Positions 5,051 through 16,523 of a stretch of DNA of 64,000 nucleotides are shown piece by piece. Each line of letters opens with the position of its first letter. The stretch's first letter is position 1. The DNA lies in the sequence record SRR20825019_1337. The stretch is one strand, 5' to 3'. The notes beneath the pieces were generated by a model that was not told the origin of the DNA, did not search any database, and saw only the letters and a program-made list of their open reading frames with translations. Made by a program: the position numbers and the translations under genes.

Positions 5051-6409
5051 TTATTTATCGGCAGCTGGTTTTGCAGCTTCTTCTTTTGATTGTTTTTCTT
5101 GTGCTATTTTCTCAATCACGGCATTTTCTTGCGTTGATGCATCTTGATTGAACAATTCTGGGTGAATATAAGTTCCTTTTAATTCTTTTTCTACTACAGG
5201 AACAATACGGTTTTCGTTTGCATATTTATCCGCACGAACACCTGTTACTTGCCAGCTCACTTCCACATTTGGTGTGTTTGTCTGAATCACAAAAGTGTTG
5301 TTACTCACTTTCTCTTTAATGATCGCTTGCGCAAATGATCCAATAACAGTCAATTGGTAACGGAAATCTTTATTTGCCGCTTCAAAATACTCTGGTAATT
5401 CTACCGTAGCAAATCCACTCGCGTCCGTCGTGATATTTCCACTATAAACGTTCATCATTTCTGGAGACTCAACGAAACTGTGTACTAGGTATTTGTTCGC
5501 TGGATCTAATGGGTGATCAATTTTGAATGTTCCTCCACCTTTTGCGATATTTCCAGTCACATTTAAGTTCCCTGTGATTGTTACGTCACCTGTGAAACCT
5601 GAGTTTCCTGTTACAGTTAAAGGTAATGTAGAGTTCGTAAAGTAAGAATCTCCCAAATTCAGTCTTCGGATATTCGTAAATCCTGATCTGTTGAAACGTG
5701 CAACTGTATCGAGTGTTGAACATCCACCTTTCAACCATAAGTTGTTTTCAGATCCATTTAGGTCGAATACCAATCCGCATTCTCCGTTAAAGTTAACGTC
5801 TTCATTAAATGCCAAACGTCCTGATTCAATCTCATTGAAGTTACCATTGTGTCCAATTCCCATAGCAACAGTTCCTGTATCTGAAACAGTTAATCGGTAC
5901 TGAGGAGCAGTGATTCCAAATCCAATACCAACATTTCCTACGTTGTCGTTATTAATGTCAGTACCCGTAGCAGTCCAATAACCGCTACCACCTCCACCGC
6001 CAACTAAACTTGTTGCTGTTTGAGCATGCATTGCATATGGAACACTAATGAATTGACTAGTTCCCAATGAAGAGTACACAGTTCCACCAGTAATATCTAC
6101 CGCTGTTTCTAAAAAGTATGGTCCAGCAGACCAGTCGATTGTTGTGAAGTCATCCGTGGTTGTTCCTGTTCCAATAGCAAGGTTTACCAAGCCAAAAGCA
6201 TTGGTTGTAGGACTGAACGTTTCCGTATAAACGGCCGTTCCTCCCGCAGTACCTTGGTGAATAATAAGTTGAATCCCTACGGCTTCATTCGGGAGAACAT
6301 TGTTCGCGCCATCACGAACCACCGCTTGGTAGTTAATGCTTTGTGGCGATTGAGCAAAAGTTGATCCAGCTGTCAGAATAACAGCTAACATGAGTATGAT
6401 TTTTTTCAT
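5051..6409 (-). CDS. Secreted fibre-like protein with phage tail-fibre/chaperone-like C-terminal domain
   Basis: Signal peptide + QSPQSINYQAVVRD...SVPYAMHA N-domain; GNVGIG beta-fibre motif; C-term KGGGTFKIDHPLDPANKYLVHSFVESP. Confidence 0.6.
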   Translation of the reverse strand: MKKIILMLAVILTAGSTFAQSPQSINYQAVVRDGANNVLPNEAVGIQLIIHQGTAGGTAVYTETFSPTTNAFGLVNLAIGTGTTTDDFTTIDWSAGPYFLETAVDITGGTVYSSLGTSQFISVPYAMHAQTATSLVGGGGGSGYWTATGTDINNDNVGNVGIGFGITAPQYRLTVSDTGTVAMGIGHNGNFNEIESGRLAFNEDVNFNGECGLVFDLNGSENNLWLKGGCSTLDTVARFNRSGFTNIRRLNLGDSYFTNSTLPLTVTGNSGFTGDVTITGNLNVTGNIAKGGGTFKIDHPLDPANKYLVHSFVESPEMMNVYSGNITTDASGFATVELPEYFEAANKDFRYQLTVIGSFAQAIIKEKVSNNTFVIQTNTPNVEVSWQVTGVRADKYANENRIVPVVEKELKGTYIHPELFNQDASTQENAVIEKIAQEKQSKEEAAKPAADK

Positions 6410-6421
6410 TTTTCGAGGTGT

Positions 6422-6883
6422 TTAGTGTTTAATTACTTGGTAAGATTTTGCGACTTTCGTTTCGTTTGTCGTCAAGAACAAAGTGTAAACTCCAGCAGAA
6501 AGCTGAGTGACATTGATCTGGGTTTGAGAACTTTTTAGTTCGTCTTGGTTGACTAATCGACCTGTTTGGTCAACAAGTTGGTACTTTAATGAACTAAAGT
6601 CTGAAACTTCGATCATTAGGAATTCATCCGTAGGATTGGGGAAAATGCTTACTTGTAGATCTGATAAATGATCTTCCAAGCCAACTATCTCCAGAAGTGT
6701 TTGATGAAAACCTTGGGTTAAGGTATTAGAACCGTTTCCCACTGTTTCAATAACTACCTCTCCCACAGTGAAGTCCACTCCGCCATTTGGTGTTGCAAAT
6801 GATTCGCCACTCGAAGATATAACTTCTTGTGCGGAAACACCTGAAACAGCAAGCAGGCTGAAAGCAATAAGTGTTTTTTTCAT
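6422..6883 (-). CDS. Small T9SS type A sorting domain protein
   Basis: Signal peptide; short QEVISSSG..TVGE..LTQGFHQ domain; IFPNPT...AGVYTL...VIKH CTD. Confidence 0.85.
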   Translation of the reverse strand: MKKTLIAFSLLAVSGVSAQEVISSSGESFATPNGGVDFTVGEVVIETVGNGSNTLTQGFHQTLLEIVGLEDHLSDLQVSIFPNPTDEFLMIEVSDFSSLKYQLVDQTGRLVNQDELKSSQTQINVTQLSAGVYTLFLTTNETKVAKSYQVIKH

Positions 6884-7074
6884 GTGATTAATATTTAGTT
6901 AAATAATAGAGTCAGCAAGTTAGGTAATTTGAGAAGGGTAGGCAAAAGAAACAACTGCTGAATTTTGAAATAGCTGAATTAAACTAAGGATTGGAGCACT
7001 CTGAAGTTAAGTTTTCCATGGAGATTTAAGATTTCTGGTTAATTCTTGGGTGAATCAGTGAAGTTAGGGTAATT

Positions 7075-7110
7075 AAAAAAGTCGTCTAAAATTGCTTCTA
7101 GACGACTTTT
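7075..7110 (-). terminator. Intrinsic terminator
   Basis: AAAAGTCGTCTA(7077-7088)/TAGACGACTTTT(7099-7110) perfect 12-bp stem. Confidence 0.8.
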
Positions 7111-7134
7111 GGGTTTAATGTAATTTATAGTTTA

Positions 7135-9501
7135 CTAGTTCTTAATCAGTTTGATCATCGCAGAACGAACACCGTCAATTGAAACTTCTACGAAGTAATA
7201 ACCAGCGTTTCCGTTGATACTCATATCCGTTGAAGATACGCTATCATAAGAATAAGCAGAAATCTCACGTCCAAGACCATCTAAGATTCTGATCGCAACA
7301 TTCTCAAAAGTTCTTCCCAAGTTTACGTGAATGTCTCCAGAAGTTGGATTCGGTGAAACAACGATGTATTGATTCAACTCAAATTCATTGAGACTAACTG
7401 CATTCACAGCGTTACAAGCAGAAGTATCTGTACATCCGTTAAGGGTTACTTTTACTGCATAGTTTCCATTCACAGATGGAGCAAAAGATTGACCCGTTTC
7501 ACCAGCAATCGCTGAGTTTCCGTTATCACAATCCAACCATTGGTAAGTTGCACCAATAGCAGCTGAAGTCAACAAAGGATCATTGTTTGTTACGTTAATG
7601 TTGATAGCAACTACTGTAAGGTTAATTGTAATTGTGCTATCACATCCCGCTGCATTAGGAATAATGTCCGTGTACGTTCCAGAAGTAGACCATGTGTTGT
7701 TTCCACTTGGAGAAGTGTAGGTATCACAAGTACTTGGAGAGATTGTCGATGAAGTATTAATACATGGCATTGTAGAACATGCAATCATGTAATGTGCTCC
7801 AAGAGAATCAAACGTGTTTTGTGGCAAAGCAACCCATTCGCTTGCTGCAGTGGACCAATCCGTATTTCCTTGTTGAACTCCCATAGATCGAACAAGTGTG
7901 TATTCACTTGTAGCGCCTCCTGGAACAGCCCAGTTTACACCTGGATCAATTCCAATTTGTCCAATAATATCCAATGTATCTCCCGTGATAATGTTTTCCA
8001 ATGAAACAGCATCATCTCCGTTAAAGAACGTTGCTGGATTCAAAGTGTCTGAAACTGCAAGAATAAGTGGGTCTGCTTGATCGTTTCCAATCACGTAAAC
8101 GGCACCTGGTGCAAGAATTCCATTCATTGCGTATGTTCCAGAAGCAGTTGGACTTCCATTTGTGTGACGTTTAACAACGTAGTTAGAAAGGTCAACTGAA
8201 GAAAATGTTGGATTGTAAATTTCCAATGCTTTGTTGTTACTTGATCCTTCAAGATACTCTGAGAAGAAAATCGCTGAACATTGTCCTGCACATGCCGTAG
8301 GAGAATTAGGATCAAGTGTCACGTCGAATGTCATAATGCTATCACATCCTGCAGCGTTTAAAATAGTATCGTTGTAGATCCCAGAAGCTGTCCAAAGTAC
8401 TCCTGATGGAGATAAGTAGCTATTGCATCCAACTACGGTAAATGAACTTGTAGTAGGTGTATTGATTGTTAAATCTACTGTATAGATCGAATCACATCCT
8501 CCTGTTGTACTAAAAATAGTGTCATTATACATTCCTGTCGTTGTCCAAGTATATGTTCCGCTTGGTGAAACATAATCATCACATGAAGATGCAGAAATAG
8601 AGAAGAAAATACCTGTATTGATTGTTAAGTCAACGATAAACAATGAATCACATCCGCCTGTTGTACTGAAAATAGTATCGTTGTAGATTCCAGTTGCTGT
8701 CCATGTGTATGTTCCACTCGGAGAAGTGTAGCTCACACATGCTGAATCAGTAATGTTCGTAACAATTTCTGGAGCGATTGTCAAGTCAATCACATACATA
8801 CTATCACATCCGCCAGCATCAAAAATGGTATCGTTGTAGATTCCTGATGTTGTCCAAGTATATGTACCACTTGGTGAAGTATAACTATTACACTCTGAAA
8901 GCGTTAAGTTAAATGTAGTTGGAGTACAAGCTCCGCATGGAGTCATTGTATGTGTGCCTAGTGAGTCAAAGAAATTCTGTGGAAATACATCCCATTCACT
9001 AGCTCCGGTTGCCCAGTTCGTGCTTCCTTGCTGAATTCCAGCCATTCTTACTAAGGTATATTCGCTCGTTGCACCAGAACCTACAGGCCAGTTCGTTCCT
9101 GGGTCAAAACCAATTTGTCCAATAATATCTAGTGTGTCTCCAGTTGAATTCTTCACTAGATAAATCGCATCGTCACCGTTGAAATTTGCAACAGAACTAG
9201 TAACGTCAGAGAGTCCCAATACTGTAGCTGACGCAGCTGAGTTAGCAATCACGTATACATCACCAGGTGCAAGCATCATAGTTGGTACGTGCGATGAGTT
9301 TGGTGTTACGCCTCCATTTACATTTAGAAAAACTGTGTAACCAGACAAGTCGATTGTTGAACTTGTTGGATTGTAAATTTCTATCGCTTTATTATTGCCT
9401 GTTCCTTCAATGTATTCCGAAAAAAACAAATCACTACACTGAGCCATGCTCGTTCCAGTAATTAGTAAAGCAAAGCTTAATTTGAATAATTTTTTAATCA
9501 T
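7135..9501 (-). CDS. T9SS-secreted protein with two lamin-tail domains and Cys-bridged spacer repeats
   Basis: Two FFSEYxEGxxNNKAxEIYNPT...FNGDDA domains; five CxxYxSPSG..WT.SG.Y.DT..GCDS repeats; SPNPT...GYYFV...KLIKN CTD. Confidence 0.82.
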   Translation of the reverse strand: MIKKLFKLSFALLITGTSMAQCSDLFFSEYIEGTGNNKAIEIYNPTSSTIDLSGYTVFLNVNGGVTPNSSHVPTMMLAPGDVYVIANSAASATVLGLSDVTSSVANFNGDDAIYLVKNSTGDTLDIIGQIGFDPGTNWPVGSGATSEYTLVRMAGIQQGSTNWATGASEWDVFPQNFFDSLGTHTMTPCGACTPTTFNLTLSECNSYTSPSGTYTWTTSGIYNDTIFDAGGCDSMYVIDLTIAPEIVTNITDSACVSYTSPSGTYTWTATGIYNDTIFSTTGGCDSLFIVDLTINTGIFFSISASSCDDYVSPSGTYTWTTTGMYNDTIFSTTGGCDSIYTVDLTINTPTTSSFTVVGCNSYLSPSGVLWTASGIYNDTILNAAGCDSIMTFDVTLDPNSPTACAGQCSAIFFSEYLEGSSNNKALEIYNPTFSSVDLSNYVVKRHTNGSPTASGTYAMNGILAPGAVYVIGNDQADPLILAVSDTLNPATFFNGDDAVSLENIITGDTLDIIGQIGIDPGVNWAVPGGATSEYTLVRSMGVQQGNTDWSTAASEWVALPQNTFDSLGAHYMIACSTMPCINTSSTISPSTCDTYTSPSGNNTWSTSGTYTDIIPNAAGCDSTITINLTVVAININVTNNDPLLTSAAIGATYQWLDCDNGNSAIAGETGQSFAPSVNGNYAVKVTLNGCTDTSACNAVNAVSLNEFELNQYIVVSPNPTSGDIHVNLGRTFENVAIRILDGLGREISAYSYDSVSSTDMSINGNAGYYFVEVSIDGVRSAMIKLIKN

Positions 9502-10907: not shown

Positions 10908-11297
10908 ATGAAACGATTATTTTTTCTGCTTTTTGCGTGCACTTATTTGTCTTCTGCATGTTCTTCCGATTCGCGACATAAAGTGGTTGGAGACCATTTG
11001 ACAATTTATTTTGATAACTTGAAAGCGGAGAAACCTGCTGAGAAATTGGCAGTTTTTTGGAAGGAAAATAAATTTATTACTGGAAAAAAGCAAGACCTTA
11101 AATTAAACCTCGAAGGGAAAAATTTGATCATTTATATGATTTCGAATAATCCCAAAGAAGTGAAGGATATTTCCTTTGATGAACAAAAAATGCTGATGGA
11201 TCTAGAATATAAAATTCAATCGGAATTGTTTCCTAAGTATTCGGTCGATTTGGTAATTACGAATGATCAATTCGTCCCAATTTTAACTCTTGATTAA
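10908..11297 (+). CDS. Hypothetical lipoprotein
   Basis: MKR + hydrophobic stretch + SSAC lipobox; stop overlaps next start (TAATG). Confidence 0.7.
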   Translation: MKRLFFLLFACTYLSSACSSDSRHKVVGDHLTIYFDNLKAEKPAEKLAVFWKENKFITGKKQDLKLNLEGKNLIIYMISNNPKEVKDISFDEQKMLMDLEYKIQSELFPKYSVDLVITNDQFVPILTLD

Positions 11298-12301
11298 TGA
11301 AAATATCTGCATCCATTTATAGTGACAAAAAAAGAGAATTAGCTGAAGTTATTAAAGACTTAGCAGAACATCAGGTCGATCTTTTACACGTAGACTGTAA
11401 CGATGATCTATCAGTTTTTGACGATATCAAAGCGATAAGAACCATGTGTGATATCCCAATAGATTTGCACATTATTACAACAAAACCTTCAAAATATTAT
11501 CAACTCCTTCAAGAGAATCCTGTTGAATACATTACGTTTCAATATGAGGACTTGGAAGAGCCGCTAGTTATTCCTGCGGAGATAACAGGGAAGAAGGGCT
11601 TGGCTGTTATCACTCCAACTTCTGTAGATGTTTTTAACGAATATGCCGATTTTGATTTCATCTTAATTATGGCAACCATTCCAGGACAAAGTGGAGGGAA
11701 GTTTGATACGCTCAATTTTTCTAAAATTCGTCAATTCAGAAATTCATTCCCAGGGAAATCAATCCATGTGGATGGTGGAGTGAACGCTGAAGTTTCCTTT
11801 ATTCTGCGAAACATGGGAGTTACAAGCGCTGTCTCAGGCTCGTATCTCTTCAATGCTGCGAGCGTAGGAAATGCATTAATGAATTTAACCAAAAGAGAAG
11901 TGGAGTCCGAATTTTGTATCGCTGACTTCATGATTCCAATTACCGAGTGTCCAGTAGTGAAATTGGCAGACATTAGCTTTGAAAATGTGCTGAAATCGAT
12001 TGAAAACGGGAAGTTGGGATTCACTATTATAACGGATGATTCAGGTAGTTTGAAAGGATTAATTTCGAACGCTGACGTACGAAAGGGACTTTTGAAAAAC
12101 CTCTCTGCGTTAGATCAATTAAATGTGAATGAGTTAATTAACGAAAATCCAACGACTATTGAAGGAAGTTCGACCGTACTCGCAATGTTGCAACTGATTA
12201 AAAAGAGCAATTTTCCATTAACTTATCTTCCTGTCATTAACAGCCAAGGAAGTGCGCTCGGAATTGTTACTTTTGTGAACCTTATCAAAGGAGAATTATG
12301 A
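11297..12301 (+). CDS. Ribulose-phosphate 3-epimerase-like barrel fused to C-terminal CBS pair
   Basis: LHVD, IDLH, LIMATIPGQSG, VDGGVN, AVSGS RPE motifs in the first approx. 195 aa; IADFMIP...GLISNADVRK...NENPTTI...LPVIN..LGIVT CBS tandem. Confidence 0.82.
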   Translation: MKISASIYSDKKRELAEVIKDLAEHQVDLLHVDCNDDLSVFDDIKAIRTMCDIPIDLHIITTKPSKYYQLLQENPVEYITFQYEDLEEPLVIPAEITGKKGLAVITPTSVDVFNEYADFDFILIMATIPGQSGGKFDTLNFSKIRQFRNSFPGKSIHVDGGVNAEVSFILRNMGVTSAVSGSYLFNAASVGNALMNLTKREVESEFCIADFMIPITECPVVKLADISFENVLKSIENGKLGFTIITDDSGSLKGLISNADVRKGLLKNLSALDQLNVNELINENPTTIEGSSTVLAMLQLIKKSNFPLTYLPVINSQGSALGIVTFVNLIKGEL

Positions 12302-13296
12302 TATTACACTTAAGATCAACTGTAAGCGATCAACGTGCCGCGCAAGTAGCACAAGAAATGAACGCTTTTCATATAAAGGACGGCTCACAACATGTCCTAA
12401 TTACTGAAGCATCGGTAAAGAATGTGCCCAATACGCTCGAAAGTGAAGTAGAGGAGTTTTGGGTGTTTGATAATGATATCCAATTAGCATCAAAAAAATA
12501 CCGCAGCGATAAGCGCTCTGTGAAAATTGGTGGTATTGAAGTTGGAGGATCAACACATTCTACGGTGCTAATTGGTGGACCTTGTTCTGTGGAATCAGAG
12601 GAACAAATTCGTTCGTCTGCCGAGTTAATAAAGTCAATGGGATTGACAACTCTTCGTGGAGGTTGTTATAAGCCAAGAACAAGTCCGTATTCTTTTCAAG
12701 GAATGGGATTGGAAGGCTTGAAATTACTAGCCAAAATGCGCGAAGAATACGGTTTAAACGTAATTACTGAAGCGAGAGACGCAACGCACATCGACGAGAT
12801 TATTGAGTATTCTGATGTCATCCAAGTTGGAGCAAAAGCAATGTACGATCAAGGAATCTTGAGAGCATGTGCAAAAACACAGAAGCCTGTTTTAATCAAG
12901 CGTGGTTTTGGAACAACGCTAAAGGAATTTGTTCAGGCGGCTGAATTTGTATTGTCTGGAGGAAACTCTAACGTGCTTTTGTGCGAACGAGGATTGAGAA
13001 CTTTTGAAACGAATACACGATTCACACTTGATTTATGTGGTGTTGCTTGGTTGCAAGAACATGTGAACTTACCAATCATCCTTGACCCAAGTCACGCGAT
13101 GGGATATGCTTACGGAGTTCCTTCTTTAGCAAAAGCATGTGTTGCAATGGGAATTGATGGTTTGCTCATAGAAGCACATCCAAATCCTAAAGTAGCGAAG
13201 TCGGATGCCTCACAACAGCTTAATTACGACGAGTTCCGTCAATTGTATAACGATATTAAGCCAGTTGCAGAAGCTGTTGGTTATCATATAATTTAA
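12298..13296 (+). CDS. Type I-beta DAHP synthase / KdsA-family aldolase with N-terminal ACT/ferredoxin-like extension
   Basis: GPCSVES, KPRTSPYSFQG, LCERG, DPSH, EAHPNP..AKSDASQQL; ATGA overlap with upstream gene. Confidence 0.88.
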   Translation: MILHLRSTVSDQRAAQVAQEMNAFHIKDGSQHVLITEASVKNVPNTLESEVEEFWVFDNDIQLASKKYRSDKRSVKIGGIEVGGSTHSTVLIGGPCSVESEEQIRSSAELIKSMGLTTLRGGCYKPRTSPYSFQGMGLEGLKLLAKMREEYGLNVITEARDATHIDEIIEYSDVIQVGAKAMYDQGILRACAKTQKPVLIKRGFGTTLKEFVQAAEFVLSGGNSNVLLCERGLRTFETNTRFTLDLCGVAWLQEHVNLPIILDPSHAMGYAYGVPSLAKACVAMGIDGLLIEAHPNPKVAKSDASQQLNYDEFRQLYNDIKPVAEAVGYHII

Positions 13297-13299
13297 AGA

Positions 13300-13980
13300 A
13301 TGTTTCTTGAACAAAACATAAAGGGAATTTGTGAGAAGTTCGGACTAGATTTTGACGAATTTCTAGATGAATTAGACGCTGAAAATGTCAAAGAACTCAC
13401 ACTTTTTGATTTAGAAGCTATTGCAGAAGAATACGAAGTTGACTTACATGCGCTGATTTTCAAAGCGTGCTTTAATGTTTCTGCACTCAGAGAGAAATTG
13501 GATCAAGTGAAGTTACTTGTGCTCGATGTAGACGGTGTAATGACCGACGGAGGAATGTATTTTACAGAAAGCGGTGACCAGTTCAAAAAGTTCAACACGA
13601 AAGATGGAATGGCAATTATTCACTTAACGAAAAGCGATTTTCAAGTGGCGATTATCTCTTCCGGATTTCGAGGTGAAGCGGTAAAAGCAAGAGCAGAGTT
13701 ACTAGGAATTCAGTATTGTCACGTTTCCCGTGAACCCAAATTAAAAATTCTAAATGAAATTTGTACCGAGCTAAATATTAGCTTGTCGCAAGTCGCAATA
13801 GTCGGAGATGACATCAATGACCAAGAAGTAATGAGAAATGTAGGTGTATCTTTTTGTCCGTCAGACGCTGTAGACACCGTAAAGGAATTAGTTGATGTTG
13901 TGCTTTCGAAAAAAGGTGGGCAAGGATGTGTTCGCGAATTAATCGATCAGTACATTTTAAAACAACCATTGAGTAAATAA
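13300..13980 (+). CDS. KdsC/YrbI-family HAD phosphatase with approx. 65-aa N-terminal extension
   Basis: LDVDGVMTDG, KKFNTKDG, VGDDINDQ, GGQGCVRELID. Confidence 0.88.
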   Translation: MFLEQNIKGICEKFGLDFDEFLDELDAENVKELTLFDLEAIAEEYEVDLHALIFKACFNVSALREKLDQVKLLVLDVDGVMTDGGMYFTESGDQFKKFNTKDGMAIIHLTKSDFQVAIISSGFRGEAVKARAELLGIQYCHVSREPKLKILNEICTELNISLSQVAIVGDDINDQEVMRNVGVSFCPSDAVDTVKELVDVVLSKKGGQGCVRELIDQYILKQPLSK

Positions 13981-13983
13981 CGA

Positions 13984-15204
13984 ATGGAGAAAATTATAAT
14001 TGGGGTAGTTAGAGAAGGAAAAGTCCCACCGGATAAAAGAGTCCCTCTAACACCAAAGCAATGTATCGCACTAATGTCTGTTTATTCGCACGTTGAAGTG
14101 ATCGTTCAACCGAGCCCAATAAGAGCTTATAAAGACCAAGCTTATTTGGATCTAGGCATCAAGATGAAAGAAGATCTTTCAGAATGTGATATTCTGATTG
14201 GCGTGAAAGAAGTAAATAAGGAAGATTTAATTCCAAACAAAAAATACCTGTTCTTTTCGCACACTTTTAAAAAGCAGCCATACAATCGGGAGCTTCTTCA
14301 AGAAATCTTAAAAAAGAAGGTTCAACTCATCGATTACGAAGTTCTTAAAAATAAAGAGGGTAAAAGACTCATTGGTTTTGGAAGATACGCTGGAATTGTA
14401 GGGACTTATAATGCGTTTTTAACGTATGGTTTGAAGCATGATTTGTACGCTATTAAAGCAGCGAATGAATGCCGCGATCGTAAAGAAGTGGAGGACGAGC
14501 TAAAAAAGACCGTTCTTCCAAGCAATATGAAAATAGTGCTCACTGGTTTCGGAAGAGTTGGACATGGTGCAAGAGAAGTGCTTGATTTACTTCCGATTAA
14601 AGAGGTTTCTCCAGAGGAATTTTTATCTGAGGAATTTGATTCGCCAGTGTATACTCAACTCGAAGTAGAGGACTATTATGGACGAAAAGATGGAAAACCA
14701 TTTGAGAAATCAGTTTTTTATAAAAACCCTGAGTTGTTCAAATCAACTTTTTCAAAGTATTTGAGCGTTTCGGATATGTACATTCCTTGTCATTATTGGA
14801 GTGATAAATCGGATTTCATAATTACGCGTGAAGATCTCAAAAAAGAGAATGTAAGATTGTCTGTTGTAGCGGACATTAGTTGCGATATTGATGGTCCAAT
14901 TGCAAGTACAATTCGACCAAGTAAAATTGCAGATCCTATTTATGGATATGATCCAATTACCGAATCTGAAGTTGATTTTAAGCAAGAAAACGCAATTGCA
15001 GTAATGGCTGTAGATAATCTACCATGCGAATTGCCGTTAGATGCGTCTGAAGATTTTGGAAACGAATTGATTAAAGAAATATTTCCTGCGCTACTATCCG
15101 AAGACAAGGATAATGTAATTGCGAGAGGATCGGAGACTACTTTAGATGGTCAGTTAACTGAACAATTCAGTTATCTTAGTGACTATCTTGCTGGAAAAGA
15201 ATGA
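13984..15204 (+). CDS. Alanine dehydrogenase/PNT-fold NAD(P)-dependent oxidoreductase (saccharopine dehydrogenase / lysine-ketoglutarate reductase-like)
   Basis: REGK.PPDKRVPLTP, GVKEV, FFSHTFKKQPYN, GFGRYAG, DISCDIDGP, AVDNLPCELP. Confidence 0.85.
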   Translation: MEKIIIGVVREGKVPPDKRVPLTPKQCIALMSVYSHVEVIVQPSPIRAYKDQAYLDLGIKMKEDLSECDILIGVKEVNKEDLIPNKKYLFFSHTFKKQPYNRELLQEILKKKVQLIDYEVLKNKEGKRLIGFGRYAGIVGTYNAFLTYGLKHDLYAIKAANECRDRKEVEDELKKTVLPSNMKIVLTGFGRVGHGAREVLDLLPIKEVSPEEFLSEEFDSPVYTQLEVEDYYGRKDGKPFEKSVFYKNPELFKSTFSKYLSVSDMYIPCHYWSDKSDFIITREDLKKENVRLSVVADISCDIDGPIASTIRPSKIADPIYGYDPITESEVDFKQENAIAVMAVDNLPCELPLDASEDFGNELIKEIFPALLSEDKDNVIARGSETTLDGQLTEQFSYLSDYLAGKE

Positions 15205-16523
15205 TTGAAAAAGGAAATAAAAAGCTGATTCGCGGATGGGTGATGTACGACTGGGCAAACTCAGTGTACAACCTCGTAATTTCGTCTGCAATCTTCCCAA
15301 TATTTTATACGAATATAACGCATGATTTATATGTAGAACGTCTGGCAAAAGCTGGATTGGTCTATAAAGAGGGAAGTCCCGTAATGGTAGATTTCTTCGG
15401 TGCTGACATAGAAAGTCAAGTGCTTATTTCTTATGTGTTGAGTGCTTCTTTTTTGGTAGTTTCTTTTCTTTCCCCGTTGCTCTCTGGAGTAGCTGATTTT
15501 ATTGGAAACAAAAAGCGTTTCATGCAATTCTTTTGCTATTTGGGAGCATTTGCGTGTATGGGATTGTATTTCTTCAAAGCAAATGTTGAACTGGGATTAT
15601 TGTCTGTTTTCCTTGCTAGCATTGGATTCTGGAATAGTTTGGTGTTTTATAATGCGTATTTACCCGAAATAGCAGAACCAAAAGACCATGATAGAATTTC
15701 CGCTCGTGGATTTTCTATGGGATACATAGGAAGCATGGTTTTACTTGTGATTTGTTTGGCAATGATCATGCTAATAGATACTTCTTATACGAAGTATAGC
15801 TTCATTCTCGTTGGGCTCTGGTGGATTGGTTTTAGTCAAATTACTTACCGCGTTCTTCCCAATAATGTCTACAACAAGACCCGCGAAAAGGGATATGTTT
15901 GGAAAGGCTTTCGCGAATTACTGATTGTGTTTAAACAGTTTAGAAAAACGGTTCGTTTAAAGCGTTATTTAGCATCTTTTTTCTTCTTCAATACAGGTGT
16001 TCAAACGGTTATGCTTATGGCGGTGTACTTCGCAAAGAAGGAAGTTAACTGGGGCGAAGGTGGAGGAGACACTGGGCTTATTATTTCTATTTTATTGATT
16101 CAAATTTTAGGAGCTGTCGGCGCGTTTAGTATGTCAAGACTTTCGGGAAAAATAGGAAACATCCACACTTTGATGATCACAGTAACGATTTGGGTTGGTT
16201 TGTGCGTTTGTGCTTTCTTTATTTCAACTCCCGTTCAGTTTTACTTCCTGGCGTGTGGTGTTGGACTCGTAATGGGTGGAGTACAAGCAATTGCACGCTC
16301 AACGTACTCTAAATTCTTACCTGAAACAGAAGATCACGCTTCGTATTTCTCTTTCTACGATGTAACGGAGAAAATCGGAATCGTTCTTGGCACTTTCTTC
16401 TATGGATTAATGTACTCGCTTACAGGAGATTTACGAATGTCTGTCCTTTCCATTGCGTTCTTCTTTTGTGTTGGGTTGATTCTACTCTTCTTTGTACCAA
16501 AGGAAGAACGAGTAATAACTTAA
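15201..16523 (+). CDS. MFS transporter, UMF1/Atg22-like family
   Basis: WVMYDWANS, YNAYLPEIA...DRISARG; about 12 hydrophobic segments. Confidence 0.88.
   Translation: MIEKGNKKLIRGWVMYDWANSVYNLVISSAIFPIFYTNITHDLYVERLAKAGLVYKEGSPVMVDFFGADIESQVLISYVLSASFLVVSFLSPLLSGVADFIGNKKRFMQFFCYLGAFACMGLYFFKANVELGLLSVFLASIGFWNSLVFYNAYLPEIAEPKDHDRISARGFSMGYIGSMVLLVICLAMIMLIDTSYTKYSFILVGLWWIGFSQITYRVLPNNVYNKTREKGYVWKGFRELLIVFKQFRKTVRLKRYLASFFFFNTGVQTVMLMAVYFAKKEVNWGEGGGDTGLIISILLIQILGAVGAFSMSRLSGKIGNIHTLMITVTIWVGLCVCAFFISTPVQFYFLACGVGLVMGGVQAIARSTYSKFLPETEDHASYFSFYDVTEKIGIVLGTFFYGLMYSLTGDLRMSVLSIAFFFCVGLILLFFVPKEERVIT

Follow-up and report, generated by a model that had tools for sequence, protein, structure and literature searches.

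Kdo (3-deoxy-D-manno-octulosonate) is the sugar that joins lipid A to the rest of the lipopolysaccharide (LPS). Two of its enzymes, the arabinose-5-phosphate isomerase (API) KdsD and the Kdo 8-phosphate (Kdo8P) synthase KdsA, are regarded as standard, near-universal parts of Gram-negative envelope synthesis and as antibiotic targets. A single-domain API of Bacteroides fragilis is reportedly active and inhibited by CMP-Kdo, as a J Bacteriol paper of about 2014 is said to describe. In the Bacteroidota order of the complete genome G001, the commonest form of API (about 78 of 201 genomes) is an open reading frame (ORF) of about 200 aa with the SIS domain only (kpsF model positions 1-152), usually directly upstream of kdsA. 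KdsD, as portrayed in PMC10448790, has one SIS and two CBS domains. Here we describe a gene on a 64,000-nucleotide stretch of DNA from sequence record SRR20825019_1337 (hereafter the window), whose product, RPE-CBS, fuses a barrel of the ribulose-phosphate 3-epimerase (RPE) type to a pair of CBS domains. We think it probable that RPE-CBS replaces the SIS-type API at the head of the Kdo branch, its barrel supplying D-arabinose 5-phosphate (A5P) under KdsD-like feedback and its neighbour, a synthase of the DAH7PS type (synthase for DAH7P, the 7-phosphate of 3-deoxy-D-arabino-heptulosonate), making Kdo8P. This joint reading draws on architecture, residue conservation, gene order, phyletic complementarity and KdsB, and from these we infer the catalytic and regulatory steps.

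An earlier note on this DNA had read a fusion of an RPE barrel and a CBS pair from the letters alone, and a search of domain libraries found both domains, so the fusion is real. The barrel matches PF00834 (Ribul_P_3_epim) with 82.7 bits over residues 2-185 (Pfam cut-off 21.1). The second CBS unit is the single one found by Pfam (PF00571, CBS, 37 bits, residues 277-331), and the first is covered by the kpsF model (216-324), by a profile match to the solved chain 4o9k (profile positions 208-332) and by the strand and helix pattern of an AlphaFold2 model (220-267). That model, built from 38 family members (pLDDT 94.4, pTM 0.89), has a barrel of eight strands and, behind it, two units with the pattern beta-alpha-beta-beta-alpha (220-267 and 277-333). 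The retained RPE motifs named in the note were located in the translation (H31-V-D33, D56-L-H58 and D159-G-G), and it was right that the usual DvMDG loop reads DCND (DCNDD, residues 33-37).

Solved RPEs (3ovp, 2fli, 1rpx) head the Foldseek matches with TM scores of 0.75-0.81 on the target, followed by D-allulose-6-phosphate epimerase; the closest solved folds are RPEs holding ribulose 5-phosphate (Ru5P) or xylulose 5-phosphate (Xu5P). Searching PDB sequences with the family profile likewise returned human RPE (3ovp, 116.6 bits, positions 2-199).

The resemblance of the CBS pair to that of KdsD, also claimed in the earlier note, was borne out. By profile and by fold, this is a CBS pair of the KdsD type. 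The best CBS-bearing NCBIfam model is kpsF (TIGR00393, 36.3 bits, residues 216-324), ahead of CbpB, KdsD, GutQ and IMPDH. Among CBS chains in the PDB profile search, the API CBS pair 4o9k came top (75.7 bits), with two further API CBS pairs, 3k2v and 3fna, in the top six. The best CBS fold match is again 4o9k, which comes from a putative arabinose-5-phosphate isomerase and reportedly contains CMP-Kdo. Conversely, KdsD ORFs match positions 203-333 of the RPE-CBS profile with about 105 bits. The pair keeps the nucleotide motif G-h-h-S/T-x-x-D-x-R-R/K; the segment that reads GLISNADVRK here has the family consensus GxITDGDxRR (n=38), the motif shared with KdsD, KpsF and GutQ. Pfam found no SIS domain in RPE-CBS, to which the kpsF model aligns by its positions 164-267 only. 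Because the SIS domain is missing and the whole-protein cut-off of TIGR00393 (KdsD/KpsF/GutQ) is missed by far (36.3 versus 203.7 bits), we place the protein outside the KdsD family. A literal swap of a SIS domain for an RPE domain, which the earlier note inferred, may have been the evolutionary event.

RPE-CBS has a large number of relatives. We found 2734 homologues in 90% clusters (E<=0.001), with both Pfam domains in all 120 among the matches listed; named homologues among the listed matches are from Crocinitomicaceae, Fluviicola or Flavobacteriales. At 50% identity there are 108 representatives (E<=1e-30), and the most divergent full-length proteins among them share 25-30% identity with RPE-CBS. 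An Atlas query with the homologue P0010 gave 14 clusters combining RPE and CBS, each with at least 50 members and mostly from Bacteroidota. By these counts the fusion is a conserved family, far beyond chance. Its members are publicly annotated as 'ribulose-phosphate 3-epimerase', 'pentose-5-phosphate-3-epimerase' or 'CBS domain-containing protein'. At rank 16 of the Atlas query, a Bacteroidota cluster of 364 aa combines CBS with a transaldolase/fructose-6-phosphate-aldolase barrel (score 0.78), which we record as a lead only.

An alignment of 38 full-length members identifies the residues under constraint. Invariant are S6, D33, H58, E84, G101, G160 and G322, and at least 90% of members keep H31, M125, G130, S132, G133, F136, D159 and G161. 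The RPE tetrad is essentially complete (H31 in 37, D33 and H58 in 38 and D159 in 37 of 38). So are the phosphate loops, PGQSGG (129-134), DGG (with D159 in H-V-D159-G-G) and SGS, whose glycines G130, G133, G160, G161 and G181 are found in 35-38 of 38. In solved RPEs these residues bind the metal, act as acid and base and hold the phosphate. With tetrad and loops kept, the apparatus for metal binding, proton transfer and phosphate holding appears intact.

The remainder of the active site is not that of a canonical Rpe. We compared the 38 members with eight canonical Bacteroidota Rpe proteins, which have 68 invariant columns; about 14 of these 68 are kept in at least 35 of the 38. What is shared is the Ser, the His/Asp/His/Asp tetrad, one Met of three, and the Gly-rich loops together with the Phe that follows. 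Two methionines, M37 and M68 in canonical numbering, are replaced, and the FVPNxxFG loop after strand 2 is deleted (six columns are gaps in 30-37 of 38 members). In addition Q stands in place of H90, S in place of G144 and G in place of Q146, and Asn116-Pro117 is replaced or deleted in most members. On this comparison RPE-CBS has a remodelled pocket around the substrate's carbonyl end.

RPE-CBS also misses the cut-off of the rpe equivalog model TIGR01163 (81.9 versus 212.6 bits, NCBIfam). By fold and profile it is a member of the RPE superfamily, yet it lies below the Rpe equivalog level and departs from canonical Rpe at most of the invariant positions. A separate canonical Rpe is encoded elsewhere in all five related genomes examined, two of them complete chromosomes; it scores 258-265 bits with PF00834, compared to 72-84 bits for RPE-CBS in the same genomes. 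Judged by these relatives, on which all genome-level statements here are based, RPE-CBS is not the sole housekeeping Rpe: it is a paralogue, the only one of the two that bears a fused CBS pair. Within the 64-kb window we found no second Rpe, KdsB, WaaA or chorismate-mutase-fused DAH7PS.

Next, we investigated how RPE-CBS is distributed relative to the first two Kdo enzymes, with SIS-type API defined by TIGR00393 at E<=1e-30 and KdsA by TIGR01362 at E<=1e-50, and the genome lists compared by eye. Among 201 genomes from the order of G001, 46 encode RPE-CBS, 138 an API and 149 KdsA (146 over cut-off), and no genome combines RPE-CBS with either of the other two. Neither RPE-CBS nor API was found in 17 genomes, and neither RPE-CBS nor KdsA in six. 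The API matches comprise 60 two-domain proteins over cut-off (60/138) in addition to the SIS-only ORFs. The order of G220 gives the same picture: of 81 genomes, nine have RPE-CBS, 35 an API and 65 KdsA, again with overlaps of zero and zero; 37 have neither RPE-CBS nor API and seven have neither RPE-CBS nor KdsA, six of these seven being only 1.0-1.6 Mb. In a sample of 301 genomes across the phylum the fusion occurs in four, none of which has KdsD, while KdsD is present in 210 of the 301. We found no KdsA in the more distant genomes G104, G204 and G220. In these samples RPE-CBS is confined to Bacteroidota genomes without the normal first two Kdo enzymes, where it probably opens Kdo synthesis by an undescribed route.

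We also asked which SIS-domain proteins are left in genomes with RPE-CBS. In the complete genome G001 all of them are GlmS, GmhA, MurQ or phosphoglucose/phosphomannose isomerase (PGI/PMI). Proteins of about 190 aa were rejected as APIs because they are GmhA (NF001628, 268.7 and 283.6 bits versus 265); a 339-aa protein is an archaeal-type PGI/PMI, a 269-aa protein is MurQ, and the rest are GlmS. The canonical mirror image is seen in metagenome loci pulled by CBS and DGG motif patterns, 72 of 80 of which bear a SIS-type API, many beside kdsA and kdsC. These loci, whose patterns came from a 5-sequence alignment, contained the RPE part in 0 of 80 and were nearly all canonical KdsD loci.

RPE-CBS is the first gene of a trio (Table 1). 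Its stop codon overlaps the start of the synthase gene as ATGA, and the phosphatase gene starts three bases after the synthase stop. Of 80 related loci from species genomes, 78 preserve this arrangement of RPE-CBS, synthase and phosphatase, and the remaining two are on contigs that stop after RPE-CBS. It recurs at 46-60% identity in G104, G204 and G220 (L126, L127, L129), and in the sample from the order of G001 the synthase is the next gene downstream in all RPE-CBS genomes (46 of 46). The trio is the core of the locus, since its surroundings change in G204 and G220, where sucD comes next. This gene-context evidence covers two Bacteroidota orders.

The product of the third gene passes the model of KdsC-family phosphatases (TIGR01670, 147.3 bits, cut-off 106.95) and falls below the cut-off of the KDN-9-P phosphatase model (152 versus 180). 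In G204 and G220 it has 155-159 aa and is devoid of the N-terminal extension seen in the window. This extension, the first 65 residues (13300-13494), matches no family and is kept in close relatives (225-226 aa).

KdsD, KpsF and GutQ likewise head clusters with a 3-deoxy-ulosonate-phosphate synthase and a KdsC phosphatase. They carry a SIS catalytic domain where RPE-CBS has the RPE-fold barrel, and against the SIS mechanism of KdsD that of RPE-CBS would be metal-dependent with two Asp. The SIS-only API, the gene whose place RPE-CBS takes, also has another fold, and it has no CBS pair. In its position, its partners, its sensor and its phyletic role, complementary to that of API, RPE-CBS is KdsD-like by all the comparisons above. 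The earlier proposal that RPE-CBS feeds the adjacent synthase fits the ATGA overlap, the kept gene order and the exclusion with SIS-type API and KdsA.

Genes for the later steps of the Kdo branch are present. A KdsB equivalog was found in all eight RPE-CBS genomes searched (G001-G005, G104, G204 and G220) and in five more from a 61-genome sample, and WaaA in all five RPE-CBS genomes examined. With KdsB and WaaA kept, these genomes are still in need of Kdo. KdsB scores range from 207 to 251 bits in RPE-CBS genomes and from 192 to 259 in KdsA-type genomes, the two sets being intermingled, and aligning KdsB from 13 RPE-CBS and 32 KdsA-type genomes yielded no group-diagnostic column, only two conservative shifts (I to L and V to I) and 54 columns common at >=90%. 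An altered sugar, which we considered, was rejected for KdsB on the same alignment, as it holds no column of the specificity type. Because KdsB appears unchanged, we argue that the activated sugar is Kdo itself.

Based on these data, we propose the following route. First, the barrel would make A5P from a pentose phosphate of the pentose-phosphate pathway, either by 2-epimerisation of ribose 5-phosphate (R5P) or, as the conservative alternative, by isomerisation of Ru5P. Epimerisation via an enediolate is typified by an Asp pair at a metal site, and as RPE-CBS retains this two-Asp apparatus, 2-epimerisation would be more in keeping with it; the rebuilt carbonyl-end pocket could provide the one-carbon shift in register. 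Second, the translationally coupled synthase would join A5P to phosphoenolpyruvate (PEP), giving Kdo8P. Third, the KdsC-like phosphatase would free Kdo for the canonical KdsB and WaaA. Finally, the CBS pair would act as a nucleotide-sugar feedback sensor, probably for CMP-Kdo or a related nucleotide, as proposed for KdsD.

We know of no ribose-5-phosphate 2-epimerase. The most far-reaching version of our proposal combines a new, non-homologous class of A5P-forming enzyme (an RPE-style R5P 2-epimerase), an ordinary DAH7PS as physiological Kdo8P synthase, and whole LPS-bearing Bacteroidota lineages devoid of KdsD and KdsA; we offer it tentatively and consider it doubtful in its entirety. Full-text searches, whose coverage excludes subscription papers, found no literature on the RPE-CBS protein or on Kdo synthesis in the absence of both KdsD and KdsA.

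The synthase is the most demanding part of this route. PF00793 (DAHP_synth_1) proteins number only two in G001, the trio synthase and a DAH7PS fused at its C terminus to chorismate mutase, which makes the former the best candidate Kdo8P synthase. DAH7PS enzymes are said, in work of the Woodard and Parker groups, to turn A5P and PEP into Kdo8P in vitro, and that of Pyrococcus furiosus reportedly accepts five-carbon sugar phosphates (Schofield et al. 2005, 'Substrate ambiguity...'). Immediately upstream of this DAH7PS gene, RPE-CBS occupies the position that related genomes give to API and kdsA. One replacement may have removed API and KdsA together, and the simplest account of these data would be that the trio DAH7PS is able to make Kdo8P. 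The chorismate-mutase-fused DAH7PS is described as the aromatic-pathway enzyme of Bacteroidota in 10.1101/2021.03.29.437529 and PMC12202928.

Nonetheless, a number of observations weigh against our proposal, most of them concerning this synthase. It passes the cut-off of a DAH7PS subfamily model (NF006421, 364.7 bits, cut-off 335). It carries KPRTS in place of KANRS and, aligned with seven flavobacterial KdsA proteins, is without their 11-residue insertion. Full-length orthologues at 51-63% identity occur in 18 genomes that have no RPE-CBS, and KdsA coexists with this unlinked orthologue in 17 of them. In seven of the 18, the orthologue lies downstream of a SIS-only API and kdsA on the same strand; such linkage in KdsA genomes indicates that the adjacency of DAH7PS and Kdo genes is older than the replacement. 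RPE-CBS-linked synthases form ordinary short-branched clades among orthologues of KdsA-bearing Flavobacteriales. The sole diagnostic column is K301, present in 17 of 17 linked synthases, compared to L in 17 of 18 unlinked ones. The complete RPE tetrad, for its part, leaves room for an ordinary Ru5P 3-epimerase activity. Finally, the genomes with RPE-CBS fall into few clades, so that genome counts are not independent events, and the sampled genomes came without completeness values. In the order of G220, the 37 genomes without a TIGR00393 match and without RPE-CBS are mostly large and KdsA-positive, which makes a missing TIGR00393 match on its own weak evidence.

Several details of the synthase and of these genomes can be added. 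The synthase carries the motifs GPCS, KPRTS, DPSH and IEAHP and misses the KDO8P_synth cut-off (TIGR01362, 130.1 versus 314 bits). Its closest solved chains are the DAH7PS enzymes 1vs1, 1zco and 1rzm (A. pernix, P. furiosus and T. maritima; 242-275 bits), KdsA chains scoring at most 100 bits. Compared to KdsA, both KdsA-specific insertions are missing along with KANRS; it has neither the L7-type insertion nor the one after the DxxH motif. From the Thermotoga-type I-beta DAH7PS it differs by its coupling to RPE-CBS and a KdsC-like phosphatase, its occurrence in KdsA-less genomes, and K301. Convergence on KdsA was considered and rejected: there is no KANRS, no insertion and no long branch, and K301 alone is diagnostic. 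This residue (window 13198-13200), two residues ahead of D303 in AKSD, is a candidate determinant for acceptance of a five-carbon substrate; it is no hallmark of KdsA, because the seven flavobacterial KdsA proteins have Q, L or K there.

The seven loci with the DAH7PS gene downstream of API and kdsA are L239, L241, L243, L244, L247, L248 and L249 (in G392, G500, G317, G307, G369, G445 and G318). In two of them the DAH7PS gene follows kdsA with nothing between, while G307 has kdsB inserted there. Examples of genomes negative for both TIGR00393 and RPE-CBS are G504, G505, G506, G508, G509 and G511, and genomes of this kind in the order of G220 may obtain A5P from a third source that is unrecognised or has diverged strongly.

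Other explanations of the same locus have to be weighed. RPE-CBS could be a true Ru5P 3-epimerase paralogue under nucleotide control by its CBS pair that only gates pentose-phosphate flux to the ulosonate branch, with A5P coming from an unrecognised or promiscuous isomerase. The tetrad and phosphate loops, kept in at least 35 of 38 members, and the Ru5P- or Xu5P-holding RPEs among its nearest solved folds agree with such a role, and the 37 genomes (of 81) from the order of G220 that have no recognisable API, most of them with KdsA, suggest that hidden APIs may exist. A housekeeping Rpe is already present in five of five relatives, however, and just 14 or so of the 68 canonical columns are kept, with M37, M68 and the FVPNxxFG loop lost. 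Its strict exclusion with both API and KdsA would be left unexplained, and every other SIS protein in G001 is accounted for as GlmS, GmhA, MurQ or PGI/PMI. We regard this explanation as unlikely.

A shade less likely again is that the trio makes another Kdo-like acid that the envelope uses in place of Kdo, such as 3-deoxy-arabino-heptulosonate (DAH) from erythrose 4-phosphate (E4P) or altro-octulosonate from R5P, with the barrel supplying or balancing an unusual aldose phosphate. The synthase, an unchanged DAH7PS type with KPRTS, would suit this, and a phosphatase acting after DAH7PS makes no sense for shikimate synthesis. Against it, a true KdsB equivalog and WaaA persist, and KdsB has no group-specific substitution (13 versus 32 genomes) and interleaving scores. 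Furthermore the fused CBS domains are KdsD-type, and the genomes with the trio have no alternative source of Kdo8P.

It is very improbable that the adjacency is purely historical, with RPE-CBS in a role unrelated to Kdo and the synthase a second aromatic DAH7PS isozyme: although the synthase is over a DAH7PS subfamily cut-off, G204 has two aromatic genes in the vicinity and DAH7PS follows Kdo genes even in KdsA genomes, this account deprives KdsB and WaaA of any Kdo supply in 55 genomes, takes no notice of the coupled KdsC-like phosphatase or of a CBS pair of the KdsD type, and duplicates the chorismate-mutase-fused DAH7PS that already serves aromatic synthesis. The two genes in G204 (L253:9814-11801) encode a prephenate dehydrogenase and an aminotransferase; both are on the opposite strand, beyond sucD and at a distance of 1.5-3.5 kb downstream from the trio, and they may be a relic of a link between the DAH7PS gene and aromatic synthesis.

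Table 1. Features of the RPE-CBS locus (positions in the window)
Feature	Position	Strand	Description
Lipoprotein-like predicted ORF	10908..11297	+	129 aa; no Pfam or NCBIfam match
RPE-CBS ORF	11297..12301	+	334 aa; barrel and CBS pair
RPE-type (beta/alpha)8 barrel	11297..11890	+	residues 1-198; PF00834, family profile, Foldseek, residue conservation
KdsD/KpsF-type CBS pair	11915..12298	+	residues 207-334; TIGR00393 and 4o9k matches
CBS motif GLISNADVRK	12056-12085	+	residues 254-263
DAH7P synthase, type I-beta, N-terminal ferredoxin-like domain	12298..13296	+	332 aa; NF006421
KdsC-family HAD (haloacid dehalogenase) phosphatase	13300..13980	+	226 aa; core of about 155 aa and N-terminal extension of 65 aa; TIGR01670
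AlaDH/PNT-like protein and Atg22-like MFS (major facilitator superfamily) transporter	13984..16523	+	406 aa and 440 aa; Pfam

The genes around the trio vary. The AlaDH/PNT-like and MFS transporter genes follow the trio in most of the 80 loci and are conserved neighbours within the close family only; we considered them as members of the module and rejected them, as they are missing after the trio in G204 and G220. Upstream, the stop codon of the lipoprotein-like ORF overlaps the start of RPE-CBS by one base (TAATG junction), and a weak homologue of this ORF (24-48% identity) is found upstream in about half of the 80 loci. Further away, three consecutive ORFs on the minus strand (window 5051-9501; 452, 153 and 788 aa) have signal-peptide-like starts, the 788-aa ORF containing repeated Cys-rich segments. 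Their C-terminal ends, compared by eye, presumably resemble type IX secretion sorting domains.

If our proposal is true, a whole family common in freshwater and seawater (the Crocinitomicaceae, with their relatives), as well as some members of a second order, would make Kdo with a first enzyme of another fold and a synthase of the DAH7PS type. Non-orthologous displacement would then have a clean example in which the regulatory CBS module was kept and the catalytic module exchanged, and enzymologists a natural test of how little a DAH7PS needs in order to act as a Kdo8P synthase. Thousands of annotations ('ribulose-phosphate 3-epimerase', 'CBS domain-containing protein', 'DAHP synthase') would need correcting.

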